From an uncultured Gammaproteobacteria bacterium (lineage in GTDB: Bacteria > Patescibacteriota > Patescibacteriia > Magasanikbacterales > UBA922), in NCBI GenBank assembly GCA_964550845.1, contig CAZKAD010000001.1, forward strand, positions 21,342-85,341: a stretch of DNA of 64,000 nt. The letters run 5' to 3'. Positions 411 to 50,279 of this stretch are shown piece after piece. Positions within the stretch are counted from its first letter, which is position 1; the number at the start of each line of letters is the position of its first letter. The notes beneath the pieces are model-generated. The model did no database searches, was not told where the DNA came from, and saw only the letters and a program-made list of their open reading frames with translations. The position numbers were made by a program, and so were the translations under genes.

Positions 411-459
411 TATTTTACTCCATCAAATAAGACTTTATCATTACCATTACAATAGAAAA

Positions 460-2471: not shown

Positions 2472-2489
2472 GCATCATGAATAATTGTC

Positions 2490-2732: not shown

Positions 2733-2740
2733 ACATCTTA

Positions 2741-2765
2741 TTTTTCACTCCAAGGAGTGAAAAAA
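2741..2765 (+). terminator. gene-end hairpin
   Basis: tttttcactcc-aa-ggagtgaaaaa. Confidence 0.55.
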
Positions 2766-2769
2766 TTGA
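2762..2769 (+). promoter_or_regulatory. AAAATTGA promoter-like octamer
   Basis: 55 nt upstream of the polB ATG. Confidence 0.65.
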
Positions 2770-2823
2770 TCATTCTTTTTATTCTCAATTATATAAATAC
2801 CTCCTTCCAATTACCGTTTAAAA

Positions 2824-36660: not shown

Positions 36661-37644
36661 ATGACATATCGAAAAGCAATCATTTATCGACGTGTGTCGA
36701 CTGCAGCCCAGCTTAATGGAAATGCATTGTTGACACAACAATTGCAATGTGAAGAATGGATTCAAGCTAGATATCCCGAATTAGAAATCAAAACTCGAAC
36801 TGACGTCGGAAGTGGCTGGAATAAAAATAAACGAGAGCCATATCAATTGCTTGAGAAAATGCAGAATATAGTTGATTCATGCACGAAGACATTGATTGTC
36901 ATTTATTGTATCGATCGATTCCTTCGAGATGTTAAAACGGCAGAAGAAATCTTACCTAAACTCAAGGAGAATAAAAATCGAATCGTGTTTTTGCTTGAAA
37001 ATCTTGACTATCACAATTTTTCTGGCAAGGATGTCTACTTGAAAATTATTAGGGGAGTCGAATCTGCTCAAACAGAATCAGATGTTAAATCCAAACGCAT
37101 GAAAGATGCCTGGAAAACAAAATGTATGCTGGAAAACAGCCCTGAACTTGAAGATGAGGAATGGAAACTTGAATATGATTCAGAATCTGAATCTGATGAT
37201 GAAAACAAAAGTGCTTTGAATCGAAGGAAAATTGAACCTGTAAAAGTTCAAGAAACTAAACTCGTTCAAGCTCCTGCTTATCGTTTGGCTAATCGACCTC
37301 AAGCGTCGATTCAACCTCCTCAAGCGTCGATTCAACCTCCTCAAGCGTCGATTTATCAATGGCCTCCCCAATTATTGATTGACAATCACTTCGACGATCC
37401 TCTCTTTTCAAAGAAAGAGAAAATTAAAAGGTTAATTCAGACTTGTTCAGAAGGACGTTATACTATCAAATCATTGAATCAACATCTTCTTCAACTTTCT
37501 TCAGTCGCCTTTTCTCTTCAAGTCGAAGAAGTTCCAACCTCGTGGGATGGAATGGCAACTTTACTAAATCTTTTTGAGATCTGCTGGGTGCCAGAAATTC
37601 CGAAAGGAGAATGGACTGCCGAGAAAGCAAAGGCTTTTAATTAA
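36661..37644 (+). CDS. serine recombinase (resolvase/invertase catalytic domain)
   Basis: AIIYRRVSTAAQ (nucleophile Ser), IYCIDRFLRD. Internal 3x PQASIQP repeat. Confidence 0.75.
   Translation: MTYRKAIIYRRVSTAAQLNGNALLTQQLQCEEWIQARYPELEIKTRTDVGSGWNKNKREPYQLLEKMQNIVDSCTKTLIVIYCIDRFLRDVKTAEEILPKLKENKNRIVFLLENLDYHNFSGKDVYLKIIRGVESAQTESDVKSKRMKDAWKTKCMLENSPELEDEEWKLEYDSESESDDENKSALNRRKIEPVKVQETKLVQAPAYRLANRPQASIQPPQASIQPPQASIYQWPPQLLIDNHFDDPLFSKKEKIKRLIQTCSEGRYTIKSLNQHLLQLSSVAFSLQVEEVPTSWDGMATLLNLFEICWVPEIPKGEWTAEKAKAFN
37297..37356 (+). repeat. 21-bp coding tandem repeat, about 2.8 copies (PQASIQP)
   Basis: cctcaagcgtcgattcaacct at 37297, 37318, 37339. Confidence 0.9.
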
Positions 37645-37684
37645 AAGCCTTTTTATAATAACCCAAAAAACTTAAAAAAATAAT

Positions 37685-37710
37685 TTTCTTGACTCTTCGG
37701 AGTCAAGAAA
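37685..37710 (+). terminator. gene-end hairpin (11-bp stem, TTCG loop)
   Basis: tttcttgactc-ttcg-gagtcaagaaa. Confidence 0.6.
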
Positions 37711-37713
37711 TGT

Positions 37714-37721
37714 AAAATTGA
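37714..37721 (+). promoter_or_regulatory. AAAATTGA promoter-like octamer
   Basis: 36 nt upstream of ATG 37757. Confidence 0.65.
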
Positions 37722-37756
37722 TTTATATTCACTCTCTGACTTGAGTAAAGATATCA

Positions 37757-39193
37757 ATGAGTATTCGAGCTGGCTGCCGAATTCCATCAAAAGGGTTATT
37801 AATTAATTTAGATACCAAAGAGATTCTTAATTTCTCAGATCATCTTAACTTGAACATAGGAGGCATCTATGATTACTCACCTCAACGGAAATGCGGATCT
37901 CTTGATTTCCCGTCCGATGATGAAATAAAAGGATACAATATGGTTTGTTACAATGGCAAACTTGATAAGTTTGCCACAATGACTAGAAAATATATTTATT
38001 TCTGGGATCTTTCCACAATTAGAGAAAAGGTTCCTTATCAGAGATGCAAACGTCCATCCTCACCATGTGTGAATTTCGGATATCTTGATAATGAATGTGT
38101 AATTGTGCTTGAAGACGAATCTTACAAAGATATTTATACCTTATACACTTACAAAACAAATTTTGTTGGACAAAAGCTTGAATTAATTGCCAAGATTCCA
38201 ACCGAATGTGATAATATTGTGACAGATGGAAATCAAATTATAGTCGGTGACGAACATTCTTCGGTTTACTCAATTTTTGAATTTGATGAAAAACAGAGAT
38301 TGATATTTAGTGACGTCATTCAAGTTGAACAACCTGACCATTTAATAACTAGTATTTGTACGCCGAAGTTTCAGGTATTTCTATCAAATTTTCAAATGCA
38401 GATTCGCTGTAAAATCGGTAACTTTTCTACTCGAACAAGTAGCACCGTCCAAGATGCTGATCCAACTACATTATATGTTATTCGAACATATAATGTAGTT
38501 GGATCAGCATCTTCAATAATCCATTTCAACTCGTTCAATCACGATAATTTCGACTTTATTATCATCGCCAATGATTACGGTTTTGACGACGAATCTAATT
38601 TCGAGGATATTGATGAATTTTGGGATAATTATACTCCTTTGAATATCTATCGAATAAATCTCCCAAATAAAGAGATTATTCAAATCGACGAAGAAGTCGA
38701 TTACTGGGAAAATAATGATCAATTTCGAGCAGCTAGACAAATAGTTCATTATCCGGCTCATGATTTTTTAATCCTCCAAAGAGATGTTATCGAAATATGG
38801 AATCTTTTTCCTATGTTTAAGCTGTGGGCATCTGATCAAATGTTCGATAAATGGGAAAAGATTGCAATTACCAATAAACTCGAAGCAACTGGAATCACCC
38901 ATGGTGTTCAAAAAACAACCATCTTTCTTGCACCATGCATTTTTGCAAATCTGATTGCATCAGGGTTATTTGAATTAAACAAGGAGGAAATTTTAACTTC
39001 CTTTTTACAAAAAGATTTGTATGATCCTCGTTTGTTAATGACGATTTGGTCTTTTGTTTACGAGCCAAGATTGGCAAGTGGAGATTACCAGATTAATGAA
39101 ATCTCTTCAGATGATGATTCCTTAAATGAAGATGAAGATTCGTTCTTCCGTCTACGATCCATGATTGTCGAATGGAGATTACCAGATCAATAA
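37757..39193 (+). CDS. LYDPR-box family protein, type I (large), with acidic C-terminal extension
   Basis: ILTSFLQKDLYDPRLLMTIWSFVY. N-terminal region resembles ORF 460..1422. Confidence 0.8.
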   Translation: MSIRAGCRIPSKGLLINLDTKEILNFSDHLNLNIGGIYDYSPQRKCGSLDFPSDDEIKGYNMVCYNGKLDKFATMTRKYIYFWDLSTIREKVPYQRCKRPSSPCVNFGYLDNECVIVLEDESYKDIYTLYTYKTNFVGQKLELIAKIPTECDNIVTDGNQIIVGDEHSSVYSIFEFDEKQRLIFSDVIQVEQPDHLITSICTPKFQVFLSNFQMQIRCKIGNFSTRTSSTVQDADPTTLYVIRTYNVVGSASSIIHFNSFNHDNFDFIIIANDYGFDDESNFEDIDEFWDNYTPLNIYRINLPNKEIIQIDEEVDYWENNDQFRAARQIVHYPAHDFLILQRDVIEIWNLFPMFKLWASDQMFDKWEKIAITNKLEATGITHGVQKTTIFLAPCIFANLIASGLFELNKEEILTSFLQKDLYDPRLLMTIWSFVYEPRLASGDYQINEISSDDDSLNEDEDSFFRLRSMIVEWRLPDQ

Positions 39194-39319
39194 AATCTCT
39201 TTAAATGCCGATTCTCTAAACGATAATGAAGATTGACATCATCTTTTAGTATTATTTATCTCTCGAGATAGATAAAATGATTTTATTATGCGTTCTCAAA
39301 AGTAAAGACGTTCCATCCC

Positions 39320-39982
39320 ATGAATATCGATTTGTTTGACAAATTTCCTTTATCATGTCTAAAATTTAGCGGATCAATTCGGGCCCGTTATGAAAACTTT
39401 GATCAATTTGTTCAGCTTTGTTCCATTATTGCTGAGAAAAAACAGTATCACACTATACATTTCAATCAAGAAGATGCCCGAAAAACTAATTTTACTGATA
39501 TTTCAATTCAATATCATTCGATAAAGAGGATTAATGAAGTTTGTTATTCATCTGAGATGAACGTATTAAAAATAAAGAAAACAATTTTAGGCATTCGATA
39601 CATCAACATCGATAATCTTGATGTACTGCAAAAATTACTTCAGTCACCTACGTTGTATCCTGGAGCTACATTGGACATTGATATTGATTTAGATTATGAA
39701 TCAAGCAACGAAACGAAAAATATAAGCACTAAAAATGAATTGGCTGTATTGGACATGATGATTCAGTCAGAATCACCATTGAGGAATCTTGATATTAAAT
39801 ATTATGTTGGCAATCTTGGTGGAATGAGAGAATTGAATATCAGTAGCTTACTCCGATTGATGCAGTTTGTTTGCTGCGGGTTGAATCTACGTGATTATTC
39901 TACATGGTCTTCCTTTCTAACTCGAGAATTATATGATCCGAGAATACTTAGTTTAATTGCGAAATTTGCATTTTGCATGTAA
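39320..39982 (+). CDS. LYDPR-box family protein, type II
   Basis: ESPLRNL...LMQFVCCGLN...WSSFLTRELYDPRILSLIAKFAF. Confidence 0.8.
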   Translation: MNIDLFDKFPLSCLKFSGSIRARYENFDQFVQLCSIIAEKKQYHTIHFNQEDARKTNFTDISIQYHSIKRINEVCYSSEMNVLKIKKTILGIRYINIDNLDVLQKLLQSPTLYPGATLDIDIDLDYESSNETKNISTKNELAVLDMMIQSESPLRNLDIKYYVGNLGGMRELNISSLLRLMQFVCCGLNLRDYSTWSSFLTRELYDPRILSLIAKFAFCM

Positions 39983-39988
39983 AATTGA
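39981..39988 (+). promoter_or_regulatory. AAAATTGA promoter-like octamer
   Basis: 43 nt upstream of ATG 40031. Confidence 0.65.
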
Positions 39989-40030
39989 TTTCTCTTCGAG
40001 ATAAAAACAATTTATATTATAATTATAGTA

Positions 40031-40693
40031 ATGTTTTCAAACTTACATGAAATAAAATCAGAATTAGTTGGTACAATTAAAACTATTTCTCGATCAGGTG
40101 AAGAGTTTGTCAAACTTTGCGATCAACTTCAACATCTAAATCGTCATACTATTTATTTTTCGACTAATTTTCGATGGTATGCTAATGTTGATGAAAAATT
40201 GGAAGATTTTGAGGACTACGATAGCATTTTTTCTCTTACGATCATTGAATTTGGGACTCAAAATCAATTTGAATTTGAAGCTAAAACTGCCATCTTCAGA
40301 AATAAATGTGTTGAACAAATTCCCCGAATTAACCATATTGATCTCTGGCATGCAGAAGAAATGAATTATCAACTTAATTGCCCTGGTGCAACAGTCGAAC
40401 ATCATTATCGTTCGGGACATAAGAAGGAGATTCATAAAAATTATTTCATACTGCTTCATGATCTCCTCAAATCAGAATCGATGTTGCGCAATTTGAACAA
40501 TGTGGTAACCACGAAAAATGCCATTCGAATCACAGAACTTCTCTCTTTAATGAAAATCATTTGTCTTGGGCTTGTAGATGAGAGCGATTTGAATTCTTTT
40601 TTAACTCGAGAATTGTATGATCCTCGATTGTTAATTACGATTGCCGAATTTACAGATCAACATTCGATTTTAATCAGCGTCAGCCCTTTTTGA
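40031..40693 (+). CDS. LYDPR-box family protein, type II
   Basis: ESMLRNL...LMKIICLGL...NSFLTRELYDPRLLITIAEF. Confidence 0.8.
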   Translation: MFSNLHEIKSELVGTIKTISRSGEEFVKLCDQLQHLNRHTIYFSTNFRWYANVDEKLEDFEDYDSIFSLTIIEFGTQNQFEFEAKTAIFRNKCVEQIPRINHIDLWHAEEMNYQLNCPGATVEHHYRSGHKKEIHKNYFILLHDLLKSESMLRNLNNVVTTKNAIRITELLSLMKIICLGLVDESDLNSFLTRELYDPRLLITIAEFTDQHSILISVSPF

Positions 40694-40710
40694 TGTTTAA
40701 AAACAAAAAT

Positions 40711-40737
40711 GATTTCTCTCTTCTCGAAGAGAGGAAA
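40711..40737 (+). repeat. family-associated intergenic palindrome GATTTCTCTCTTCTCGAAGAGAGGAAA
   Basis: Near-identical copies at about 41457..41485, 42244..42273 and 42901..42929, each just upstream of a type II start codon. Confidence 0.85.
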
Positions 40738-40749
40738 AATAACAATCTC

Positions 40750-41460
40750 ATGTTATCTTCTCTAAAAGAATCGGGACTTGAACTCGTCGGAACATTAAAA
40801 ATTGTTTCACGCAGTTGTGATGATTTTGTCAAACTGTGCCAACAATTTGACAATCTTTATTTTCATCGCCTCTCTTTTTCGGACAATTTCGAATCATATG
40901 TACAAGAGGACAGTAGATTGATCGATTTTGAAGATCAAGACGAAATCTTTGCTCTCACGGTCGTTCAGTTCTTATCAGAATCGGAATATAAATTTAAGGT
41001 AAATAGTTATATTTTCGGAAATGAATGTAATTATCAGATTCCGAATGTTTCTGAAGTTGAACTTTGGGAAGAAAAAGAAATTGATTGTGACTTTGATTGC
41101 CCGAATGCGAGAGTTATTCACAATTATTTTCCTCGATTTGGATTGGAAGTAAATTCTGGAAAAATCTCAAGAAGTCAGGAGGTTTGTAAAAATTATTTAG
41201 TGATGCTTCAACGACTACTCACTTCGGAATCGAGATTGAGAAACTTAGACAATGTAGTGGACCGTTTTAATCATCGAATAAGAGAATTACTGCAATTAAT
41301 GAGACTTATTTGTCTTGGGCTGAATGAAGAGAATTCAAATTCGTCCTTTCGGGACTCGAATATTTTGTCTACCTTTTTGGTCAAAGATTTGTATGATCCT
41401 CGATTGCTGATTCTTATTGCACAATTTGTTGACCAATATTCAATTGTCTTTCAAAACTGA
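40750..41460 (+). CDS. LYDPR-box family protein, type II
   Basis: ESRLRNL...LMRLICLGL...STFLVKDLYDPRLLILIAQF. Start moved to ATG 40750 downstream of the palindrome. Confidence 0.8.
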   Translation: MLSSLKESGLELVGTLKIVSRSCDDFVKLCQQFDNLYFHRLSFSDNFESYVQEDSRLIDFEDQDEIFALTVVQFLSESEYKFKVNSYIFGNECNYQIPNVSEVELWEEKEIDCDFDCPNARVIHNYFPRFGLEVNSGKISRSQEVCKNYLVMLQRLLTSESRLRNLDNVVDRFNHRIRELLQLMRLICLGLNEENSNSSFRDSNILSTFLVKDLYDPRLLILIAQFVDQYSIVFQN

Positions 41461-41500
41461 TTTCTCTCTTCTCGAAGAGAGGAAAATTATTATTTCAGTT

Positions 41501-42187
41501 ATGTTCCCTGCTCTCAGCGAATTAAATCCCGAATTAATCGGAACATTTAAAATCGTCTCCCGATCAAGTGAAGATTTTATTAAACTTTGTCACAAGCTGC
41601 AGAATCAATCTCATCATATAATCTCCTTTTCGGAGAATTTTCAATCATGTATTGAAGATGACGAAAGATTGATCAATTTTGAAAACCAAAATGAAATTTT
41701 CGCCCTTACGGTGCTTGAATTCAGATCAGAAAATCAATTTCAATTAGATGTTGAGACCTTTATTTTCCGTCAGCAATGCGATTCACAAATTCCTGGTGTT
41801 TCCACGATTGAACTTTGGAGTGAAATGGAAATTAATTACCAATTTGATTGTCCCGGTGCAACGGTGGTTCATCGTTACTTTCCTTCACGTCAGAAAAATA
41901 GAATGACTGGTAAAACTACATTGATACCGCAAAGTAAAAAGTATTTCCAAATGTTGCAAAGGTTTCTTCTTTCTGAGTCGCCTTTCCGTAACTTGAATAA
42001 TGTAATTCCTCCTTATGATAGTGTTTCAGTCTCAGAACTCCTTCATTTAATGAGAATTACTTGTCTCGGTCTTGTGGATGATGGGATAATGAACTACTTT
42101 TTAACTCGTGAATTGTACGATCCTCGATTGCTATATTTGATTGCGAAGTTTGGAGATACTTATTCAATTGTGGGGGAATTGGAGTAA
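41501..42187 (+). CDS. LYDPR-box family protein, type II
   Basis: ESPFRNL...LMRITCLGL...NYFLTRELYDPRLLYLIAKF. Start at ATG 41501. Confidence 0.8.
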   Translation: MFPALSELNPELIGTFKIVSRSSEDFIKLCHKLQNQSHHIISFSENFQSCIEDDERLINFENQNEIFALTVLEFRSENQFQLDVETFIFRQQCDSQIPGVSTIELWSEMEINYQFDCPGATVVHRYFPSRQKNRMTGKTTLIPQSKKYFQMLQRFLLSESPFRNLNNVIPPYDSVSVSELLHLMRITCLGLVDDGIMNYFLTRELYDPRLLYLIAKFGDTYSIVGELE

Positions 42188-42245
42188 TCAGAGCAATAGA
42201 AGTAATCGGAGTAATCGGAGTAATCGGAGTAATCAGAGTAAAACT
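42183..42245 (+). repeat. 9-bp tandem repeat, 7 copies (AGTAATCRG)
   Basis: Starts at the stop codon of gene 41501..42187. Confidence 0.85.
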
Positions 42246-42277
42246 GATTTTCTCTCTTCTCGAAGAGAGGAAAAGTA

Positions 42278-42904
42278 ATGTCTTTTTTCAAAGATATAGA
42301 TCCATCAGAGTTTACATCTCTTACAGCAGAGTTAAAGTTTAGTACATTTGAAAGATTAGTTCATTTCATTCAACAAAGTAAAACTGAAAACTCTTATATC
42401 ACCTTAACTTTTAACCGGAGTATCACTGATACATTTGAGGCTAATGCTGAAGTTTGTAGATATTCAGATTCATCTTTCGTCATTCATATACATGTCGAAT
42501 TGAAAGAAGGTCAATCCTTAACTATTCCAAATATAGACGAAGTAAACATCGATCTTAAATATTTATCCACTAAACCCGACATTGATTTTCCGCAAGCAAT
42601 AGTAAAATTACTTTGTGATAGTTCAAGTAGAAATCAACTTGAACCAAAAGCTTTATCCATTTTACTTAATTCAACTTCAAAGCTAAGAAATCTTCCTTTC
42701 TTCTATACTTCATTACATGATAATAATGATGAAGAGCTCAAACTCAACTTTTTGATTCGATTGATGAGACTGGTTTGTTGTGGAATGAGCGAAGAGAATT
42801 CAAACATTTGGTCTACCTTTCTCACAAAAGAATTGTATGATCCTCGATTAATGATTCTGATTGCGCGATTCATCGATCAATGTTCAGATGTCTTACAAAA
42901 CTGA
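42278..42904 (+). CDS. LYDPR-box family protein, type II
   Basis: TSKLRNL...LMRLVCCGM...WSTFLTKELYDPRLMILIARF. Confidence 0.8.
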   Translation: MSFFKDIDPSEFTSLTAELKFSTFERLVHFIQQSKTENSYITLTFNRSITDTFEANAEVCRYSDSSFVIHIHVELKEGQSLTIPNIDEVNIDLKYLSTKPDIDFPQAIVKLLCDSSSRNQLEPKALSILLNSTSKLRNLPFFYTSLHDNNDEELKLNFLIRLMRLVCCGMSEENSNIWSTFLTKELYDPRLMILIARFIDQCSDVLQN

Positions 42905-42936
42905 TTTCCTCTCTTTTCGAAGAGAGGAAAGTAATA

Positions 42937-43571
42937 ATGTCACTCATTAAAGATGTCGATCTTTCAGAGATTATATCTTTGAAAATGGAACTTAAATTTG
43001 GTACCCCTGAAAAATTAATCCGTTTCATTCAACAAAATAAAGGCCAAAATTTTCAATGCAAATTGACCTTTAGCCGTAGTAAAACTGACACATTTGAGGC
43101 TGCTGTCGAAGTTCGCAAACTTTCGAAAATTTTCGTTGTTGATATGCATGTCGAGATGAAAGAAGATCAATCTATAACCATTCCGGATATAGATGAAATC
43201 AACATTAATTTTTCATATTTATCCGAAAAACCAGATATCGATTGCCCGGGAGCAAAAGTATATTTATACTGCGGTGGTTCAATTACTGATCAAATCGAGA
43301 TAGAAACTTTAACTATTTTACTTAATTCAACTTCAAAGCTGAGAAATCTTCCTTTCTTTTGCGTTCCATGGAACAGTATTGACAGAGAAATCTTCCTTTC
43401 TTTTGCGTTCCATGGAACAGTATTGACAGAGAGCTCAAACTCAACTTTCTGATTCGATTGATGAGACTTGTTTGTTGTGGTGTTTGTGAAGAGGATAATG
43501 TATGGCAATTCTTTTTGACTCAAGAATTGTATGATCCGAGATTACTTAGTGGCATTGCAGCGTTTAATTAA
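42937..43571 (+). pseudogene. LYDPR-box family member, type II, frameshifted by a 44-bp tandem duplication
   Basis: Reads ...TSKLRNLPFFCVPWNSIDRE, then duplicated unit 43341..43384 / 43385..43428. Removing one copy restores ...LKLNFLIRLMRLVCCGVCEEDNVWQFFLTQELYDPRLLSGIAAFN, with stop at 43569..43571. Confidence 0.75.
43341..43428 (+). repeat. 44-bp exact tandem duplication
   Basis: gagaaatcttcctttcttttgcgttccatggaacagtattgaca x2. Confidence 0.95.
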
Positions 43572-43620
43572 TTTAGAGAGTCTCGAAGAGACGTTTAACT
43601 AATTCAGAGAGTCAAGAGAA
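43562..43620 (-). repeat. TTAAAC-hairpin repeat, reverse orientation (about 31-bp unit, 2 copies)
   Basis: gtttaaYtaattYagagagtc twice, with gtctc-gaa-gagac stem. Confidence 0.7.
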
Positions 43621-43719
43621 AGTAGCTAATTCAAAATATTCATCTCCTTTCGAAGAGATAAAAAGTGATTAATTCTTTTGCGTATAAAAGAATTAAAATA
43701 AAAGAATTAAAATTAAAAG

Positions 43720-44403
43720 ATGGACAAACCTTTTAACCAGTCTCAAGAGACGTTTAATCCAATTGAGATTTTTCGTATTGAATCTGACACTTTGATTAAG
43801 AAGCTGGGAAAAGGTCCACGTGGAAATATATTGAATGAATATTTTGAAGTGCCTAAAAAATTTACTCAAGGAATGTTGTACTTCTATTTTTCGCATCATG
43901 TATTTGACCACTTTGAAGAAAAGCTCGACACAAAAATTATCTTCCCTCGAAATCAGATAAAAAATTTTCAACTCTTTCTTAAGCAAAATTACCCGGATAC
44001 TTCATCATTTCGATTTCTCTATTATTTACATCAAATACATCCAGAACATTGTATTATTGGTATCGAAAATGGACAAGGTGTCCATCATTTTTTCAAACAT
44101 GACTATGGATTGTACGGAGATATGTATGAAAACTACTATCATTTTCTCGAAATCATTGTTCGATTGATTGGTGAAAAAGTTGATCATGGTTATGATCCAC
44201 TTGGAGAATTGGTTGCCAATGGATTGATCGACAATGGACAATTTTATGCCTTTCTCACAAAAGAATTGTATGATCCTCGTGTTTTAATTATGATTCATCA
44301 ATTTGCCTTCGATCCAAATAAAACTCGATATTTGTCTGCTTCCGGAGAAGTTATGGAAGAAGAAATTAAACAGCTTCAACAAGATGAAAATAATGAAGAT
44401 TAA
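43720..44403 (+). CDS. LYDPR-box family protein, type III
   Basis: FNPIEIFRI...YFYFS...NYPDT...GEKVDHGYDPLGELVANGL...FLTKELYDPRVLIMIHQFAFDP. Confidence 0.8.
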   Translation: MDKPFNQSQETFNPIEIFRIESDTLIKKLGKGPRGNILNEYFEVPKKFTQGMLYFYFSHHVFDHFEEKLDTKIIFPRNQIKNFQLFLKQNYPDTSSFRFLYYLHQIHPEHCIIGIENGQGVHHFFKHDYGLYGDMYENYYHFLEIIVRLIGEKVDHGYDPLGELVANGLIDNGQFYAFLTKELYDPRVLIMIHQFAFDPNKTRYLSASGEVMEEEIKQLQQDENNED

Positions 44404-44487
44404 ATTCTTTTATCTCCTCTCGGGGAGATATAAAAAATGAATTTCCGACGAAACTCAAAGGTATAAAAGAAAGATAGAATAAAAGAA

Positions 44488-45189
44488 ATGACTCAATTTA
44501 CACCAATTGATATCTTTCGAATTGATGCCCAGATTCTAAGTGAGAAAATTGATAATATTAAAAAATATGTCCAGCTCGATGAAAAATTTTCTCGAGGTAT
44601 ATTATACTTTTATTTTTCATGGGAAATAGAAATGGTAAAAGTTTCTCAAAAAGACTGCTTTCACAAGTTCAAGGAATTTCTTCGGCAAAATTATCCAGAT
44701 ACTTTTCCTTTCCATTTTCTCTATCATCTTCATCGGAAAGCAAACAGATCTTACACTTTAGCCGAAAATAACCGAGGAGTTATATATACATATATACATG
44801 ATTATGGTTTGTATGGGAATGAAGTTAGTAATCGTGATAGCTTTTTTGAAACTACTATTCGAACATTTGGTGAAAAAGTTGATCATGGTTATGATCCCCT
44901 TGGCGAATTAGTTGCTTCAGGATTAAACAGTGAAGGCATTTTTCATGCCTTTCTCACAAAAGAATTGTATGATCCTCGTGTTTTGATTTTGATTCATCGA
45001 TTCGCCTTTGATCCAGATAAAGAAAAATTCTACAATGTATATGGAAAGATTGTCGAAGAAGACCTCGACGAGAACGATTCGATGTCATTTGACATAGCAT
45101 CAGACGAAGAGATATTCGATGAAAGTGATGAGGAGATATTCGATGAAAGTGACGATGAAAGTGACGATGAAAGTGATGAAGAGAATTAA
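44488..45189 (+). CDS. LYDPR-box family protein, type III, acidic repeat tail
   Basis: Same architecture, FLTKELYDPRVLILIHRFAFDP, with tail SDEEIFDESDEEIFDESDDESDDE. Confidence 0.8.
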   Translation: MTQFTPIDIFRIDAQILSEKIDNIKKYVQLDEKFSRGILYFYFSWEIEMVKVSQKDCFHKFKEFLRQNYPDTFPFHFLYHLHRKANRSYTLAENNRGVIYTYIHDYGLYGNEVSNRDSFFETTIRTFGEKVDHGYDPLGELVASGLNSEGIFHAFLTKELYDPRVLILIHRFAFDPDKEKFYNVYGKIVEEDLDENDSMSFDIASDEEIFDESDEEIFDESDDESDDESDEEN

Positions 45190-45248
45190 TTATGTTTGTT
45201 TCCTCAAGAGGAAGCAAAAAATTTTAGTTTGTAATCAACACCCGTTGT

Positions 45249-45992
45249 TTAGTCTTCATTATCACTATTATCACTATTCGCCATGGCCAAAATAGCCGCG
45301 TACTCTGGACCAGGGGCGAGATGCTCATCACGATAATTATTAAAATCTTCTTCAAATTCCTCACCAAAGGCATCAAAATCTTTGATTTTGTTCGGATCGA
45401 AGGCAAATTGATGAATCAAAATCAGAATTCTCGGGTCATACAATTCTCGAGTCAAAAATGTATGAAAACAACTATTTCCTTCCGAATCATTCAGTCCTGA
45501 AGCAACCAATTCTCCAAGTGGATCGTAGCCGTGATCAACTTTTTCACCGAGCAAGCGAACAAAAATTTCAAGAAGATGATGATGACAGTCTACTGTATCT
45601 CCATACATTCCATAGTCATGAGTGTAATATCTCGTAATTCCTTGATTATTTTCAAGTAAAATAAGACAATATTTTGGATTATCACCATGAAGACGTATCA
45701 AATAACGAAATGCTGAAGTATCAGGGTAATTCTGTTGAAGAAAAAGTTTAAAATTTTCATACTGGCTTTGAGTGAAGACTATTTCACTATTTTCGGATTT
45801 GTGTTTGCTACGCTTAAATATATGATGAGAAAAATAAAAGTACAATGTCCCTTGAGAAATCTTTTTTGATAATTCGAAATGTTCATTTAGCGCATTACCA
45901 CGATGACATTTCCCCAGCTTTTCAATCAAGATTTGCGCGTCAATTCGAAAGATTTCAATTGGATTAAATGTCGCAAGGGACTGGTTAAACAT
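45249..45992 (-). CDS. LYDPR-box family protein, type III
   Basis: FNPIEIFRI...GEKVDHGYDPLGELVASGL...FLTRELYDPRILILIHQFAFDP. Start at ATG 45992, because the GTG at 46055 lies in hairpin 46051..46078. Confidence 0.8.
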   Translation of the reverse strand: MFNQSLATFNPIEIFRIDAQILIEKLGKCHRGNALNEHFELSKKISQGTLYFYFSHHIFKRSKHKSENSEIVFTQSQYENFKLFLQQNYPDTSAFRYLIRLHGDNPKYCLILLENNQGITRYYTHDYGMYGDTVDCHHHLLEIFVRLLGEKVDHGYDPLGELVASGLNDSEGNSCFHTFLTRELYDPRILILIHQFAFDPNKIKDFDAFGEEFEEDFNNYRDEHLAPGPEYAAILAMANSDNSDNED

Positions 45993-46050
45993 CTCTTTAG
46001 TTTGACTATCTAATGATATCTTTACAATTTGATCAATGGACAAAGGTAAA

Positions 46051-46078
46051 ATCACTTTTCCTCTTGAGGAAAAGTGAT
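46051..46078 (-). terminator. gene-end hairpin
   Basis: atcacttttcctc-tt-gaggaaaagtgat. Confidence 0.55.
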
Positions 46079-46082
46079 AGAT

Positions 46083-46448
46083 TTATTGCTTAGCTCCTTC
46101 TTCGAAACGCTTATTGAGTTCTTCGAAACGCTTATTGAGTTCTTCGAAACGCTCATTGAGTTCTTCGAAACGCTTATTGAGTTCTTCGAAACGTGTGTCC
46201 TTTGAATTTATTTGCAAACTTCCTTTGAATTTTGTTAAAGCATTTCGAAATGAGTCTGGATCATCTATATTGAACATATACGAAGTCTCCGAACAATTTG
46301 ACGAAATGGTACCTCGAAATAAATTCAAATGTACAATCACATTTCTGCTATGAATTGAAACAGTTTCACGATTTGGAGATATCCGGATAATTGGACTTTC
46401 CAATTTAAGTTCGTTGGCAACTATTTCTGCCATCTCTAAAGCAGACAT
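46083..46448 (-). CDS. hypothetical protein with C-terminal RFEELNK heptad repeats
   Basis: Paralogue of 46547..46891 (MAEIVANELKLESPII / MAEMIAKELKLANPII). About 4.6 x 21-bp repeat. Confidence 0.6.
   Translation of the reverse strand: MSALEMAEIVANELKLESPIIRISPNRETVSIHSRNVIVHLNLFRGTISSNCSETSYMFNIDDPDSFRNALTKFKGSLQINSKDTRFEELNKRFEELNERFEELNKRFEELNKRFEEGAKQ
46100..46196 (-). repeat. 21-bp coding tandem repeat, about 4.6 copies (RFEELNK)
   Basis: cttcgaaacgcttattgagtt at 46100, 46121, 46142, 46163, 46184. Confidence 0.9.
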
Positions 46449-46546
46449 TTTAGATGTCTTTCGGGAGTTATTGAATGGTTTGATTTATTAACGATTAACT
46501 AATAACTTAAAAATCATTTTTCCTCGAGAGGAACAATGATACATTT

Positions 46547-46891
46547 TTATTGCTTGATTCCCTCAACTGGATTCTTATTGACTTCTTCGGGGCTTTTAAC
46601 TTCTGAATTCACTTTCAAACTCTCTTTAATCCCTAACAACGCGCCTTGCAACGAAGATGGACTATCGAACATGTACATGTTCGAAGTGTTCGATGAAATC
46701 GTGCCAAGAAATCGATCCAGTTCAATAATTACATTCCCACTTTGAATTGAGACACAATCCGAATTATTTGGATGTACCTGAATAATCGGGTTTGCCAATT
46801 TGAGTTCTTTGGCGATCATTTCTGCCATTTTCACGGTAGACATTTCGGATGTTTTTCGGGTGCTTTTTGAGTGCTTTTGAATATTTTCCAT
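46547..46891 (-). CDS. hypothetical protein, paralogue of 46083..46448
   Basis: Shared LGTISSNxS..YMF and LKL.xPII segments. Minus-strand AAAATTGA 17 nt upstream. Confidence 0.6.
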   Translation of the reverse strand: MENIQKHSKSTRKTSEMSTVKMAEMIAKELKLANPIIQVHPNNSDCVSIQSGNVIIELDRFLGTISSNTSNMYMFDSPSSLQGALLGIKESLKVNSEVKSPEEVNKNPVEGIKQ

Positions 46892-46907
46892 TCGCCGAAC
46901 AAGAAAA

Positions 46908-46915
46908 TCAATTTT
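46908..46915 (-). promoter_or_regulatory. AAAATTGA promoter-like octamer (minus strand)
   Basis: 17 nt upstream of minus-strand ATG 46891. Confidence 0.5.
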
Positions 46916-46916
46916 G

Positions 46917-46972
46917 GAATCGAATGAATTGAATGAATTAAATGAATTGAATGAATTGAATGAATTGAATTC
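46917..46972. repeat. 9-bp satellite (GAATGAATT-like), block 1
   Basis: gaatcgaatgaattgaatgaattaaatgaattgaatgaattgaatgaattgaattc. Confidence 0.9.
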
Positions 46973-47030
46973 AATAAAGTCGAATTCAAAAGTCTATAAA
47001 TTTCAAATCGAAAATGGAAAAGTTTTGAAA

Positions 47031-47077
47031 TCGAATGAATTGAATGAATCGAATGAATTGAATCGAATGAATTGAAT
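47031..47077. repeat. 9-bp satellite (GAATGAATT-like), block 2
   Basis: tcgaatgaattgaatgaatcgaatgaattgaatcgaatgaattgaat. Confidence 0.9.
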
Positions 47078-47100
47078 TTTATTCCCCAAAGGGAATAAAA
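47077..47100 (-). terminator. hairpin after the capping-enzyme gene
   Basis: ttttattccc-caaa-gggaataaaa. Confidence 0.6.
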
Positions 47101-47116
47101 TGCCTGTCAATAGACG

Positions 47117-50100
47117 TTAACAGATCTTGTTTCGAATTCCTTTAACCAAGGGATCATTTGGACCGAAAATTCGGTGAATCACGTTTCCTTGACCAACTCT
47201 TCCGACTGTTTCGTAGTGATTATTGTCTCGATAAGAAACTAACACAATGCTTGGTCTTCCTTCGGTATAACTACAATCAACTGGAATTGGTTTTCCATCT
47301 TCATCAAGCAAATAGATATCATGGCGAATAAATTCAGACAAAATTTCAAGTACTTCGAGACCAACTTCATTGCCACTCGTTCCAAGATTATCAATGAAAT
47401 TTGCATACGCTTCTTGTTCGGCGAGCTCAAAGATTTTCTTCAAATCAAGCAAACCTCCAGCAGACAAATCTTTTCGAAGAGCTTGTAGTTGAAATGTATT
47501 TTCGAGTTCTTTTTTGTAAACTTCGATCATCTTTGATTGAAGAACTTTATCTTGTTCAAGACGAAGTAAATATTTTTCAAGCTGATATTGATTTCCCATC
47601 ATTGCAACCAAATTGGCTCGACGGCCAAGAAAACCTTCGTTTTTATTGGTCAAATAATAGTGAACAATTGAGTCAAAGCCTGGAACTTTTCTTCCAAATC
47701 CCATTCGTGCAATTCTTCCTTCTCCAACTTTCTTCCATTGGGCAATTGGAATGTTGACTGTTTTTCTCCAATTTTTGACGAACTCTTTCTTCTCATCGTC
47801 TTTCATTTTACGATAATCGATACTTAATGCTGTCTGTAAGGCATGGAAGAAATCATTTCCATCTACAAGAGTACCTGTACGAACCAATCCTTTCTCTTCA
47901 AGAACGATACTGTATACTTTATTCTTTCCAGGGTCAATTGGTTGAAGCGCAAGATCTTCTTGGATATTTACTCCACGAGCAAATCCGGTCAACGGATAGT
48001 AACTTTCTCGAACAAAGAGGAAAGATCGATACAGTCGAGCAAGTTGTTGTTCTTCAGGATCGAGCCATATCGGAGGTGAAAAGATCTCACTCTTTTCAAG
48101 TTTGAATCCGATTGTTTTCATTTTGTCGACGAAGTAATCCCAGTCAACAAGATATTCAATTTGCGTCTCAGCGACTGTCTGACTTCCTTTGTATTGATAT
48201 TCAAGTCCCTTGTTAAATAGAATATTTCCGGAAAATGGTTGATACAATCTCTTCAAAGTCACATTTCCAAGCTGGACAATCCCCTTTTCAAGTATTCGCC
48301 GAGTCGCTTGTCCATCAATGGTGGTTCCAAGGAAATATCCATTTTTCTCAACACTTTCATCAAGTGTTTGAAGAAGACCGTTGAGTGGATCTTCGTTTTC
48401 AAAGAAGAATGACAGCACAAAGAATGAAGTGGCAACTTGGACACGAGATCCGCGCAAAGCTTTCACAATTGTTTCAGTATCTTGCGCTCGAGCTTGAATA
48501 TCAATCAAATTTAGTCGTTGATTGCGAAATTCCATTTCGCTTGCTCTTTGTTTCAATTCGAGGAGAAACTCCGGATTTGGTTCAATTGCAATCAGTCTCG
48601 CTACATGAGCAGTGTAATATTTCATCAAATCTCCTCCTTTTCCAGAACCCAGATCAAGGATAGTTCTTTCGGGGCAGTACAGATTAATCAATTCTCGTTT
48701 AATCGTATTGCTAAACTTACGGAAAGCATCTCGATCTGAACTTTGTTTCAAGGCATTAATTAGTTCTTGTTCGGTGAGAGGATTTTGAATATCAATCCAA
48801 ACGTCTTTTGCAATGTCAACGTAATTTGGTTCAGTTTTATCTGGACGTGCCTTCACCAGTTCAAAAGTTCCGTTGTGCCAACGATATTCTCCAATCTTTG
48901 GAGGATAAAATTTGCTGCGAATGGTACCACGAAAGCCAGGAGGTGTAAAATGAATCAAACCATTTTTACCACCAACCATCAAATTGTACATTTCACCATA
49001 GACTTTCACTGCTGCAAAATCAATGGTCAATTCGTGGACTGGTTTCCACTTATAAGTATGGAAATTTAAATAAGGTTCTGCAATTGGAGTGAGAATTAAA
49101 CCATCATAATTAGGATTATTTCGAATCTCGTTCAACAATTGTTCAGTGTCTTCGGCAATTTGATAAGTCATGAAAAATTGTTTCTTAATGATATCAACAT
49201 CACGCAGACTATTGACCAATTGCTCAATGTATTCAAATCTCTTATCAAGAGTCAATTGACGGACATCTCGATCATGAAGGCAAATCATATCAAAGATATG
49301 AACTTGATTCTTAAAGAATTCACAATCAAAGATTGTTCCATCAAGATCTTCACGAATCTTACTTCGAAAGAGTTCGATGTTACCTTTCATTCCAGCCAGA
49401 AAAAGTTTTTGATCTGTAATAATCCCAATCATCCGCACTCCATTTAATTTTTTAGTCACTGCGTAGGCAGAGAGGTTTAAATTCCATCGTTTCAAATTGA
49501 TCGGTTGAGGAAGACCACGTTTGAACAAAACTGATTCGTCGAACTTTGCGCCATCTTGTTGTTTGAAAAAATTATTAAAGAAGCGAAGTGCGACTTTTGT
49601 ATCAACATTAATCTTCTCTTTGAGAGCATCAAAAGAAGCCCAGATCAACTTAAGTGGCATAAAGAAGGTTTTCAAATCAATATTCTTTGAAAAATATTCA
49701 ACTTCAACTTCATAACTCTCTTGAGTTGAAGTCATCTCAATTGAATGTGAAGCATCCTTAGCAAAGAAAGTAACTCGAGATTTTTCACGAGTCATTTGAA
49801 TTGATCCTGGTTCATCTTGAGTAGGTATTTCCTCTGAAGTGACTAAGTCGATCTTAATAGTATATTCTCCTTGAACTCGATCAAACAAAGTGAATCTCGA
49901 CTTCATCATTTTCCTCACTTTGGTTATTGGTACGTTATCAGTTAAAACTTCTTCAATTCGGATATTATTATCTGACAATTGTGCAAATGTCTTGGAAAAT
50001 TTCCCCTGTTGATAGAGATCAGAATCAGTAATAATTTTGAGTAGCCACATCCATCTCTTTTGATCAGCATTCGGAAATCCAGCCTGAGCTTTACCTTGAT

Positions 50101-50239
50101 AAATAAACCCAAGTCGAGCTTCAATCTCGGTATTTGGTTTACCGAGACTTTCTTTCAACACCGATTGAATTCGATTACAAACATCCGGTTGGATGCCAAT
50201 CTTCGAATTCCCGAGGATCTCTGCAGCACATTGATCCAT
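47117..50239 (-). CDS. mRNA capping enzyme (TTM triphosphatase, guanylyltransferase, cap N7-methyltransferase) with C-terminal OTU-like domain
   Basis: EIEARLG and EVEVEY (TTM), KKLNGVR (KxDG-like), ILDLGSGKGGDL (SAM site). C-terminus LVDGNDFFHAL ... GLEVLEILSEFIRHDIYLL ... NNHYETV. Confidence 0.92.
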   Translation of the reverse strand: MDQCAAEILGNSKIGIQPDVCNRIQSVLKESLGKPNTEIEARLGFIYQGKAQAGFPNADQKRWMWLLKIITDSDLYQQGKFSKTFAQLSDNNIRIEEVLTDNVPITKVRKMMKSRFTLFDRVQGEYTIKIDLVTSEEIPTQDEPGSIQMTREKSRVTFFAKDASHSIEMTSTQESYEVEVEYFSKNIDLKTFFMPLKLIWASFDALKEKINVDTKVALRFFNNFFKQQDGAKFDESVLFKRGLPQPINLKRWNLNLSAYAVTKKLNGVRMIGIITDQKLFLAGMKGNIELFRSKIREDLDGTIFDCEFFKNQVHIFDMICLHDRDVRQLTLDKRFEYIEQLVNSLRDVDIIKKQFFMTYQIAEDTEQLLNEIRNNPNYDGLILTPIAEPYLNFHTYKWKPVHELTIDFAAVKVYGEMYNLMVGGKNGLIHFTPPGFRGTIRSKFYPPKIGEYRWHNGTFELVKARPDKTEPNYVDIAKDVWIDIQNPLTEQELINALKQSSDRDAFRKFSNTIKRELINLYCPERTILDLGSGKGGDLMKYYTAHVARLIAIEPNPEFLLELKQRASEMEFRNQRLNLIDIQARAQDTETIVKALRGSRVQVATSFFVLSFFFENEDPLNGLLQTLDESVEKNGYFLGTTIDGQATRRILEKGIVQLGNVTLKRLYQPFSGNILFNKGLEYQYKGSQTVAETQIEYLVDWDYFVDKMKTIGFKLEKSEIFSPPIWLDPEEQQLARLYRSFLFVRESYYPLTGFARGVNIQEDLALQPIDPGKNKVYSIVLEEKGLVRTGTLVDGNDFFHALQTALSIDYRKMKDDEKKEFVKNWRKTVNIPIAQWKKVGEGRIARMGFGRKVPGFDSIVHYYLTNKNEGFLGRRANLVAMMGNQYQLEKYLLRLEQDKVLQSKMIEVYKKELENTFQLQALRKDLSAGGLLDLKKIFELAEQEAYANFIDNLGTSGNEVGLEVLEILSEFIRHDIYLLDEDGKPIPVDCSYTEGRPSIVLVSYRDNNHYETVGRVGQGNVIHRIFGPNDPLVKGIRNKIC

Positions 50240-50271
50240 TGCTTTTATTTCGAGAAAGAAAAAGGAAGATT

Positions 50272-50279
50272 TCAATTTT
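50272..50279 (-). promoter_or_regulatory. AAAATTGA promoter-like octamer (minus strand)
   Basis: 33 nt upstream of the capping-enzyme ATG 50239. Confidence 0.65.

Follow-up and report, generated by a model that had tools for sequence, protein, structure and literature searches.

A short helical LYDPR box on tandemly expanded proteins of uncultivated giant viruses, a candidate adaptor-type docking module

A six-frame scan of the window, the 64,000-nucleotide stretch of DNA analyzed here, found the peptide LYDPR exactly 12 times, in each case 14-74 residues ahead of a stop codon. The chance expectation was about 0.03 (0.024 from the six-frame amino-acid composition; 200 shuffles averaged 0.045 and never exceeded 1), and a box HMM run over the whole window at a permissive threshold (E<=10) returned the same 12 boxes and no weaker matches. 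Ten boxes lie in consecutive genes at 37757-46055, all of which an ORF check located where the initial annotation had placed them, and two lie in outlying genes. The box genes and the features around them are:

331..1422, plus strand: box gene outside the array, 363 aa, with the box at nt 1273..1416 and an unrelated N-terminus; lies upstream of DNA polymerase B
36661..37644, plus strand: serine recombinase (resolvase) gene beside the array; Pfam Resolvase, E=1.4e-14
37757..39193, plus strand: box gene big478, 478 aa; long unassigned N-terminal region; box at nt 38924..39082, followed by an acidic tail
39320..39982, plus strand: box gene A1, superfamily A, 220 aa; box at nt 39833..39976
39983..43719, no strand: repeated intergenic unit of an AAAAnTGA octamer and a 22-26-nt palindrome, then an ATG 10-20 nt on
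40031..40693, plus strand: box gene A2, superfamily A, 220 aa; box at nt 40514..40672
40750..41460, plus strand: box gene A3, superfamily A, 236 aa; longer H1-H2 linker in the box (nt 41266..41448)
41501..42187, plus strand: box gene A4, superfamily A, 228 aa; box at nt 42023..42178
42278..42904, plus strand: box gene A5, superfamily A, 208 aa; box at nt 42725..42886
42937..43571, plus strand: box gene A6, superfamily A, frameshifted; the box, at nt 43428..43565, reads in the +2 frame with respect to the N-terminal part
43341..43432, plus strand: 44-bp perfect tandem duplication, 2.1 copies at 100% identity (Tandem Repeats Finder), which breaks A6
43720..44403, plus strand: box gene B1, subfamily B, 227 aa; DHGYDPLGELVA motif ahead of the box; box at nt 44188..44322; acidic tail
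44488..45189, plus strand: box gene B2, subfamily B, 233 aa; box at nt 44884..45033; repetitive acidic tail
45249..45992, minus strand: box gene B3, subfamily B, 247 aa if started at the ATG at 45992; box at nt 45375..45530
62976..63821, minus strand: box gene outside the array, 281 aa, with the box at nt 62991..63113 and an unrelated N-terminus

The big478 box scored 57-58 bits against the box HMM, and no Pfam family matched the protein. The gene flagged as a pseudogene in the initial annotation, A6, was indeed broken by the 44-bp duplication: removing one copy restored a 196-aa ORF ending in the box, and its counterparts in strains L144 and L145 are intact at 196 aa (82-85% identity). The acidic tail of B2 is encoded by a 24-bp repeat at 45106..45184, and for B3 a GTG at 46055 is likewise open as a start. 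B1 has the homologues P0001, P0041, P0062, L001 and L091, and the outlying genes have counterparts elsewhere, P0043 for 331..1422 and P0037 for 62976..63821.

Between near-identical strains, the mRNA capping enzyme showed 98.7% identity, versus 66-97% for the box genes. The box genes also differed in presence and absence among these strains, with fresh pseudogenes. Orthologues of big478 in related strains showed 85-90% identity, and the identity of A1 to the L145 and L146 counterparts was just 66%. A2 was present in L146 (96% identity) and missing in L145, and A3 was present in L145 (81% identity) and missing in L146. The position of the block beside the capping enzyme gene is conserved, and the syntenic relative L069 has three box genes where the window has ten, with a WD40+box protein at the position of big478. 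The serine recombinase is 82% identical in L145, and a homologue sits between box genes in the syntenic relative (L069/L139). The ten-gene block is a lineage-specific tandem expansion whose genes undergo birth-and-death evolution, and such fast turnover is typical of host-interaction families.

Every array gene checked except A1 had its own AAAAnTGA octamer, and a palindrome lay near each gene; no octamer was present between 39194 and 39319, ahead of A1. The palindromes, for example at 40713..40736, 41461..41484, 42248..42273 and 42906..42930, have the form TTTCTCTCTTC-TC-GAAGAGAGGAAA. These units are putative expression signals and possible recombination substrates. The octamer can be called early-promoter-like by analogy only.

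The initial annotation had described a C-terminal module with a hydrophobic G-L segment, a linker and an F-L-T...LYDPR stretch, and the boxes in the window matched this description. Their shared pattern was h-h-x-x-G-L, a 4-12-residue linker, W/F, and F-L-T-(K/R/Q)-(E/D)-L-Y-D-P-R-(L/I/V)-(L/M)-x-x-I-x-x-F. The consensus of the LYDPR box was [LF]xx[LI][IV]xxGL - 4-12 residues - [WF]xxFL[T][KRQ][GED]LYDPRL[LF]xxIxxF, and the domain spans about 45-50 residues. Conservation had also been proposed for the underlying DNA. This claim stood in part: the string ttgtatgatcctcg was identical in 7/12 copies, and the remaining copies varied synonymously (Arg CGA/CGT/AGA; Leu TTG/TTA/CTG/CTA; TAT/TAC; GAT/GAC). 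The box is therefore conserved at the protein level.

Pooled dN/dS was 0.20 for the box and 0.28 for the rest of the protein, and because of the latter value we saw no sign of pervasive positive selection in the variable parts. Across 118 diverse boxes, D and R were invariant (100%), and conservation of G, Y and P reached 98-99%. We used A5 for both structure predictions. AF2 modeled its box alone with a pLDDT of 88.2 and helices at residues 2-19, 26-32 and 39-48, each amphipathic with one conserved hydrophobic face. In the full-length model (pLDDT 68.3), an alpha/beta domain precedes the helical box, where confidence dropped to 54-64. The maximum Kyte-Doolittle 19-residue means of the box were 0.7-2.0 and its charged residues were invariant, so the segment is not transmembrane. 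The box is thus a real protein module under purifying selection, composed of three short helices.

The initial annotation had called for a profile search beyond the locus. Outside the window, exhaustive searching with HMMER recovered 241 cluster representatives (E<=1e-3; clusters below 50% identity), and the fetched metagenomic loci, about 122-141 in number, contained 243 boxes. Boxes occurred in at least 113 metagenome stretches, at up to 9 per 15 kb, and one sister-species MAG carried at least 21 distinct box ORFs. Conservation of the peptide spans contigs of 21 to 56% GC. The possibility, raised at the outset, of a low-complexity or transmembrane artefact confined to this locus does not agree with these data, since the box is neither and is widespread. 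Hundreds of environmental virus-like proteins contain it, and its distribution is wide yet lineage-restricted, in large multigene families of uncultivated giant viruses (NCLDV).

Once the box was trimmed off, the window members sorted into no fewer than five N-terminal types, between which hhalign probabilities were <4%. Only the A genes (39320-43571) were related, and remotely so (61-93%; 61-74% for A1 against the others), which bears out the strong upstream divergence first noted. The trio at 43720-45992 and the three long proteins were unrelated to the A genes or to each other (<4%). The view that the family is defined solely by its C-terminal box thus goes a little too far for the block, in which 6-7 of the ten genes share one remote N-terminal domain and three share another. 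Elsewhere, 118 N-termini formed 77 BLAST components. Among 206 complete ORFs, the box was C-terminal in 159 (~77%), N-terminal in 20 (~10%) and internal in 2, and 25 ORFs were short or box-only; in L004, it occupies residues 26-77 of 529-aa proteins. The partner domains recognized in environmental box proteins were ankyrin repeats (15/127), LRR (8/127; for example, P0156) and WD40 (6; for example, P0066, E=3e-82, and a 334-aa gene in L069). In the ankyrin proteins, the repeats are N-terminal and the box is at the extreme C-terminus; the window's own box proteins lack ankyrin repeats. WD40, LRR and ankyrin are classic target-binding repeats, and the box is a modular, position-independent unit. 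These partners, the N-terminal boxes and the fast strain turnover support the earlier suggestion of an adaptor family with a constant module on variable proteins.

The Pfam F-box, F-box-like and PRANC models matched none of 9 window members (E<=1) or 277 other members, and a profile search of the PDB, which holds many F-box chains, gave no F-box match. Using hand-entered F-box and SOCS sequences, hhalign gave the box a probability of 0.4% against the F-box alignment (98.9% in a half-versus-half F-box control) and 0.2% against the SOCS box. The failure to recognize any named domain in the initial annotation was therefore borne out, and by these sequence comparisons the LYDPR box appears to be a previously undescribed domain that matches none described. 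Neither the window nor 1.08 Mb of fetched loci yielded a homologue of Skp1, Elongin C, Rbx1 or E2. Only one ubiquitin-like ORF came up, and Pfam identified no ubiquitin-pathway gene among ~50 ORFs of the window.

SOCS-box/BC-box proteins (ASB with ankyrin repeats, WSB with WD40; viral BC-box proteins too) dock variable receptors onto Elongin B/C-cullin ligases. The SOCS box resembles the LYDPR box in being C-terminal, about 40 aa long and three-helical, after ankyrin or WD40 repeats. However, the BC-box spacing L-x-x-x-C-x-x-x-[AILV] misfits helix 1 of our box, which is conserved at i, i+3, i+4, i+7 and i+8, and the LPxP cullin-box is absent. Cellular F-box proteins likewise form large, fast-evolving families in which a helical docking module of ~45-50 aa is combined with WD40 (FBXW) or LRR (FBXL) target-binding domains, both combinations being known here. 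By contrast, the F-box is normally N-terminal, and profile and fold comparisons gave no match between it and the LYDPR box.

Poxviral ANK/PRANC proteins bind Skp1 through a C-terminal F-box-like module, which is truncated but retains Skp1 binding (PMC4353913), and they have many paralogues per genome with lineage-specific gain and loss (PMC4353913, PMC9414399). They too are a virus multigene family with variable N-terminal binding repeats ahead of a short, constant helical C-terminal module, and the 15 environmental ankyrin proteins have exactly this layout. There is no sequence relationship, however: PRANC, a truncated F-box, has a start of the LPxE type, whereas the LYDPR box has three helices with invariant G-L, W-x-x-F-L and Y-D-P-R, and it is also found at N-termini and attached to WD40, LRR and numerous unassigned domains. 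Chlorovirus ANK proteins carry a C-terminal Skp1-interaction motif that works like an F-box (PMC7019647, citing Noel et al. 2014); PBCV-1 A682L/A607R (ANK), with the virus-encoded Skp1 A039L, offer a giant-virus precedent for a C-terminal docking motif, although no Skp1 homologue turned up in the window or in the 1.08 Mb of box-bearing loci. Amoebal giant viruses tandemly amplify ANK, F-box, MORN, BTB/Kelch and FNIP families with rapid changes in copy number (PMC5753266). The LYDPR family shares these large tandem paralogue arrays and fast copy-number shifts in NCLDV genomes, but known repeats or domains define those families, and an undescribed terminal module on unrelated domains defines this one.

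We moderately favor the reading that the LYDPR box is a new adaptor-type docking module, best read as analogous to the F-box, PRANC and SOCS boxes and without homology with them. The box probably connects diverse target-binding proteins to one and the same partner. The variable part, whether ankyrin, LRR, WD40 or an unassigned domain such as those of the A and B genes, would bind the target, and the box would tether each protein to the single common partner.

A targeting domain that brings diverse cargo to one place, either the viral factory or, through for example a core, portal or capsid protein, the virion, is unlikely. The predominance of the extreme C-terminus, the many unrelated cargo domains, the short or box-only ORFs and the failure of profile, hhalign and gene searches to find any similarity to the ubiquitin system would suit such a role. 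However, the partners are target-binding repeats, not enzymes or effectors, and the turnover and the early-promoter-like octamer (by analogy, and at all array genes but A1) fit host interaction better than packaging. Packaging and localization signals are further weakened because ~10% of boxes are N-terminal and the module is folded into three helices.

It is quite improbable that the box is an extremely diverged true F-box or PRANC that recruits SCF ligases by binding Skp1, in the manner of poxviral ANK/PRANC and chlorovirus ANK proteins. Its size, three-helix make-up, terminal placement and WD40, LRR and ANK partners recall F-box, FBXW, FBXL and PRANC proteins (PMC4353913; PMC7019647), and F-boxes are notoriously divergent, with truncated poxviral ones still binding Skp1 (PMC4353913). 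The searches of Pfam and the PDB and the hhalign comparison with the hand-entered F-box set nevertheless speak against it, as do the missing LPxE start and late Trp, and G-L, W-x-x-F-L and Y-D-P-R are without F-box counterparts.

We hold equally doubtful a self-association (dimerization or oligomerization) or structural capping module with no common external partner. Small amphipathic helices with one conserved hydrophobic face each would serve self-association, and the low confidence in the full-length model would be expected if the box needed a partner surface, possibly another box copy. Yet a polar Y-D-P-R loop kept at 98-100% across hundreds of unrelated proteins exceeds what a generic coiled or capping helix needs, heteromerization among dozens of co-expressed paralogues is hard to square with independent functions, and the box, being found at both ends of proteins and alongside non-repeat domains, is therefore not a repeat-array cap.

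Conservation of the DNA itself, as a translated recombination or regulatory element, or a compositional or transmembrane artefact is effectively refuted: the string exact in 7/12 copies, a synonymous divergence that in the box exceeds that of the remaining gene, and short mosaic tracts hinting at gene conversion between paralogues across boxes could be cited for it, but synonymous sites vary freely under an invariant peptide (dN/dS 0.20), the peptide persists across the GC range and 241 clusters, and hydropathy, invariant charges and the confident AF2 fold stand against an artefact.

For the docking module that we favor, the partner would be host-encoded and ubiquitin-related, and the box genes may be expressed early. 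Because of the analogy in architecture, the partner would most likely belong to the class of multi-subunit host hubs, of which the adaptor arm of a cullin-RING ubiquitin ligase is one example. If the partner is indeed such an adaptor arm, the box proteins would be interchangeable substrate receptors.

The window belongs to the genome of a giant virus (NCLDV) and has a GC content of 33-42%. Its landmark genes include the following:

2824..5781: family-B DNA polymerase (PolB)
36661..37644, plus strand: serine recombinase (resolvase), flanking the box gene array and containing a 21-bp repeat x2.7 (PQASIQP)
47117..50275, minus strand: mRNA capping enzyme, guanylyltransferase plus N7-methyltransferase
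54051..56987, plus strand: RNA polymerase Rpb1

The window also encodes a ribonucleotide reductase small subunit, an XPG-type nuclease, an RNase H, several Ser/Thr kinases and an intein-containing kinesin (16275..18800, minus strand; Pfam Kinesin, E=3.7e-95), whose Hint/intein-type domain lies at residues ~93-190. The closest relative of PolB is a metagenomic sister (76% identity) and all others, also metagenomic, reach at most 54%, so the lineage is uncultivated. The Rpb1 ORF ends at 978 aa, within Pfam domain 5 (positions 1-64 of 267), and the product is likewise 978 aa in relatives; because the remainder is not adjacent, the gene appears to be split or intron-interrupted. The capping enzyme bears a C-terminal extension of ~280 aa that is conserved in L069, a syntenic relative, and has no Pfam or PDB match. 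An OTU-like domain in this C-terminus ('DGNDFFHAL...NHYETV' signature) was considered and rejected for want of Pfam or PDB support.

The initial annotation had reported ten tandem genes sharing a C-terminal LYDPR box, one of them a pseudogene. All ten were found where it had placed them, and the observation is confirmed overall. A six-frame scan detected exactly 12 LYDPR pentapeptides in the window, each 14-74 residues ahead of a stop codon, versus 0.02-0.05 expected by chance. Ten lie in the block and two are outliers (331..1422, plus strand; 62976..63821, minus strand), and a permissive HMM scan revealed no further, weaker copies in the window. Box genes account for roughly a fifth of the window's genes. 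The pseudogene, A6, is broken by a perfect 44-bp tandem duplication (43341..43432); with one copy deleted, a 196-aa ORF that terminates in the box is recovered, and the gene at this position is intact, at 196 aa, in the related strains L144 and L145. The box gene at 37757..39193, whose protein is 458-478 aa in related strains, contains within its coding region a perfect 29-nt inverted repeat with a 5-nt loop (38451..38513), a structure seldom seen in an ORF that may reflect a recent insertion, a fold-back or an error of assembly. At 39036..39234, a tandem duplication of 94 bp (2.1 copies, 77% identity) spans the post-box tail and stop codon of the same gene and has reshaped the C-terminal tail of its product.

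Codons for the invariant box residues differ at synonymous positions among the window copies, indicating that the conserved entity is a protein and not a DNA element. Alignment of 118 diverse boxes gave the consensus [LF]xx[LI][IV]xxGL - 4-12 residues - [WF]xxFL[T][KRQ][GED]LYDPRL[LF]xxIxxF, in which D and R are invariant (100%) and G, Y and P nearly so (98-99%). With this alignment, AlphaFold2 modelled a 50-residue box at a pLDDT of 88.2, with helices at 2-19, 26-32 and 39-48, each having a single conserved hydrophobic face, and YDPR in the loop preceding helix 3. The box is thus predicted to be a folded, autonomous three-helix module. Pooled Nei-Gojobori dN/dS over strain pairs was 0.20 for the box and 0.28 for the rest of the gene, indicating purifying selection on both. 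Together, these results exclude a DNA-level or compositional artefact as the source of the conservation. The best 19-residue Kyte-Doolittle means are 0.7-2.0, in stretches that contain Gly and Pro, and the module includes the invariant D and R plus a conserved K/R; the box is therefore neither a transmembrane nor a low-complexity artefact.

Searched exhaustively with HMMER, 1.84 billion cluster representatives yielded 241 proteins at E<=1e-3, of which 13 reached E<=1e-10; the box lies within ~30 residues of the C-terminus in almost all of them. Together with 243 boxes in fetched loci, this HMM search, which the initial annotation had proposed, established conservation beyond the locus. A word-indexed protein search with box profiles returned one match each time; such a search is effectively blind to this family (1 versus 241), so its near-empty result is no evidence of rarity. 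We also scanned metagenome contigs and a prokaryotic genome collection with an explicit degenerate DNA pattern, which matched at least 113 stretches in the former and 22 in the latter. A local box HMM run on 141 fetched loci (966 kb) located the 243 boxes, which are spread over 122 of these loci at densities of up to nine per 15 kb. Where the ORF was complete, the box was C-terminal in 159 cases, N-terminal in 20 and internal in two, and 25 ORFs were short or box-only; examples of N-terminal placement are proteins of 529 and 617 aa encoded on contigs from Hainich groundwater, in which the box lies at residues 26-95. In IMG/VR, a related-locus search and two DNA-pattern scans gave chance matches only and no member of the family; L002 (a phage tail-fibre region) and L148 ('ALYDPS' in a 30-aa ORF) were rejected on this ground.

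Box-bearing contigs came from groundwater (Hainich), marine and other metagenomes, with GC contents of 21-56% (median 36%). NCLDV core genes could be recognised in the fetched flanks of only a handful, so 'giant-virus-specific' is the best description of the box and is not proven. Fourteen of the 22 prokaryotic stretches belong to a single MAG, CALMMZ01 (L120, L124-L128, L130, L131, L133, L135-L137, L139 and L140), and the HMM confirmed the box in all 14. This GTDB record (SRR5676435_bin.113) is named 'uncultured bacterium' and kept as a bacterial species representative. It contains at least 21 distinct box ORFs, and its contig L139 has the same ORFs as L069, an NCLDV contig with a capping enzyme. 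Very probably, CALMMZ01 is a sister giant virus that was mis-binned. MAGs of Paceibacterota (L123) and Babeliales (L138) likewise include small contigs with boxes.

Outside the box, the proteins diverge widely. We compared the window members, with the box removed, using phmmer and hhalign. They fell into superfamily A (genes 39320 to 43571, given as seven genes and labelled A1-A6; pairwise hhalign 61-93%), subfamily B (three genes, 43720 to 45992) and three N-terminal singletons (331, 37757 and 62976), with an hhalign probability below 4% in every between-group comparison. The N-terminal parts of 118 proteins from the HMMER search formed 77 unconnected BLAST components. Most of what the box is attached to matches no Pfam domain; every recognisable partner is a target-binding repeat domain (WD40, LRR or ankyrin), with DUF4116 also listed (2 of 127 environmental members). 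Ankyrin repeats accompany the box in 15 of the 127 (E down to 1.5e-55) and LRRs in eight, as well as in P0156, another protein from the search. A canonical WD40 propeller is present in the box protein P0066 (E=3e-82); a further five or six proteins are of WD40 type. In individual proteins, the repeat domain comes first and the box follows at the extreme C-terminus: in L119, ankyrin repeats span 162-298 and LYDPR lies at 340 of 354, and L051, L097 and L086 also have ankyrin repeats followed by the box. The 15 ankyrin-bearing environmental members thus place the box as PRANC is placed, C-terminal to the repeats, whereas Pfam detected no ankyrin repeats in the window's box proteins.

The initial annotation had not recognised the box as an F-box, PRANC, SOCS-box or BTB domain, and by the features testable here it matched none of them and does not appear to belong to any. 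No Pfam family covered the box in nine window members (E<=1) or in 277 others. A PDB-wide profile search with the box gave a best E of 1.6 and no F-box chain, and Foldseek against BFVD gave nothing at E<3.6; its seven weak matches include three Faunusvirus proteins, among them an ankyrin protein, which offer a lead only. A literature search with LYDPR motif strings found no relevant paper. PRANC (PF09372) gave no profile match in window, other or individually scanned ankyrin and WD40 members, and SOCS_box and BTB had none in the nine window and 277 other members. In a rough test with uncurated SOCS-box sequences, hhalign scored the box at 0.2% (control, 99.7%). Unlike SOCS/BC-boxes ([STP]LxxxCxxx[AILV] plus the cullin box LPxP), the LYDPR box lacks LPxP and has a different spacing of helix-1 hydrophobic residues. 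BTB/POZ domains are alpha/beta folds of 95-120 residues, whereas the LYDPR box has ~50 residues and is predicted to be all-helical.

A transmembrane segment or tail anchor would need an uninterrupted hydrophobic stretch of ~19-23 residues near the terminus, which the box lacks, and 20 boxes are N-terminal. Among rival accounts of the box, a targeting or packaging domain is improbable. That it is a very diverged F-box we consider quite unlikely. The F-box families (PF00646 and PF12937) gave no match at E<=1 in nine window proteins, were absent from the families reported for 150 and 127 other members and from individually scanned ankyrin and WD40 members, and a rough hhalign comparison with uncurated F-box sequences gave 0.4% (control, 98.9%). 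A self-association module is a similarly weak prospect.

The array itself turns over rapidly between relatives. In L069, the capping enzyme is 65% identical to that of the window over 1049 aa and the neighbourhood is the same (RNase H, small ORF, capping enzyme), but there are three box genes (B-like, A-like and WD40 plus box) versus ten in the window; the window array is thus an expansion at a conserved site. In strains whose capping enzyme is 98.7% identical, box genes are just 66-97% identical. L145 lacks A2, and L146, another near-identical strain, lacks A3. L144 has one extra split B copy and lacks a small neighbouring gene, retaining only one of two small paralogues that separate the array from the capping enzyme in the window (46083..46448 and 46547..46891, minus strand; 121 and 114 aa). 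The former ends in a 21-bp repeat x4.6 (NKRFEEL...), and the capping enzyme gene is preceded, at 46917..46970 and 47000..47100, by arrays of a 9-bp unit, GAATTGAAT (x6 and more). Tandem paralogues, copy-number differences, a pseudogene and divergence faster than that of the capping enzyme place the family among accordion-type NCLDV families.

Pooled synonymous divergence was 0.39 in the box versus 0.20 in the rest of the gene. It was several-fold higher in the box for genes 40031, 43720, 44488 and 45249 relative to their L144-L146 orthologues, for example 0.76 versus 0.06-0.11 in B1, and short (about 67-nt) mosaic tracts within boxes match a different paralogue better. These sequence patterns hint at gene conversion between boxes. 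Contraction or expansion of the array by unequal crossover between boxes, producing chimeric genes with wholly swapped 3' ends, was rejected, as in other strains both ends of a gene match the same paralogue. The flanking resolvase is 82% identical at this place in L145 and is found amid the box genes in L069.

Nearly every spacer in 37645..47116 contains a short GC-containing palindrome (22-26 nt within the array); the version TTTCTCTCTTC-TC-GAAGAGAGGAAA occurs at 40713..40736, 41461..41484 and 42248..42273. Identical intergenic palindromes are a possible recombination substrate for the array. In all array spacers but the one upstream of A1, the next ATG is preceded at a distance of 17-66 nt by an AAAAnTGA octamer, and the exact sequence AAAATTGA is over-represented across the window (40 versus 25.9 +/- 5.0 expected; 0 of 100 shuffles reached 40). 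Both signals resemble the mimivirus early-promoter octamer and 3'-end 'hairpin rule', and by this analogy would suggest that the array genes are individually transcribed and early. The order in the spacers is octamer, palindrome, ATG, which is odd if the palindrome terminates the upstream gene.

Viruses and intracellular bacteria repeatedly evolve a constant docking box that hijacks a host machine, joined to a swappable domain that chooses the victim, as in PRANC, viral BC-boxes and bacterial F-box effectors. The LYDPR system looks like another such family, built on a module without detectable relation to known boxes. Similar layouts are found in poxviral ANK/PRANC proteins, an adaptor/receptor family (PMC4353913, PMC9414399), and in chlorovirus ANK proteins, which have a C-terminal Skp1-binding motif (PMC7019647). 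Cellular FBXW/FBXL and ASB/WSB SOCS-box proteins also share this adaptor/receptor architecture. The adaptor interpretation in the initial annotation holds in part: a constant box on variable ANK, LRR and WD40 domains supports it, but no similarity to a known ligase box was found. As a domain the LYDPR box is new and undescribed, whereas its architectural role is a familiar one.

Most likely, and with slightly more belief than doubt, the box would dock the variable domain onto one shared partner, since a constant, constrained, position-independent three-helix module, variable domains and fast-turnover tandem families together make up an adaptor architecture. Under shared-partner docking, a host cullin-RING ligase arm would be the leading, if doubtful, candidate. 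In 1.08 Mb of box-bearing sequence, queries with uncurated human sequences found no viral gene for Skp1, Elongin C, Rbx1 or E2. A ubiquitin-like ORF is present on L025, a contig with box genes (1845..2870, plus strand; phmmer E=3.5e-16 versus an uncurated human ubiquitin sequence). It is also conceivable, at somewhat less than an even chance, that the box is a virus-specific docking domain recruiting a hub that known viral adaptor boxes do not use. Such a hub, host or viral, might be another arm of a ligase, part of the chaperone or proteasome machinery, or a viral factory or virion scaffold.

The strain comparison offers a clean natural case of birth-and-death evolution beside an almost invariant core gene. 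Hundreds of diverged box copies occur across groundwater, marine and other metagenomes, and the box HMM is a sequence handle with which to annotate hundreds of current ORFans. The identity of the partner would reveal a host hub targeted by an uncultivated giant-virus lineage, and might make of the box a new compact recruitment domain for induced-proximity experiments. If the hub is one that known viral adaptor boxes do not use, the LYDPR-box proteins would constitute a new class of interchangeable receptors in an uncultivated, environmentally widespread lineage of giant viruses.
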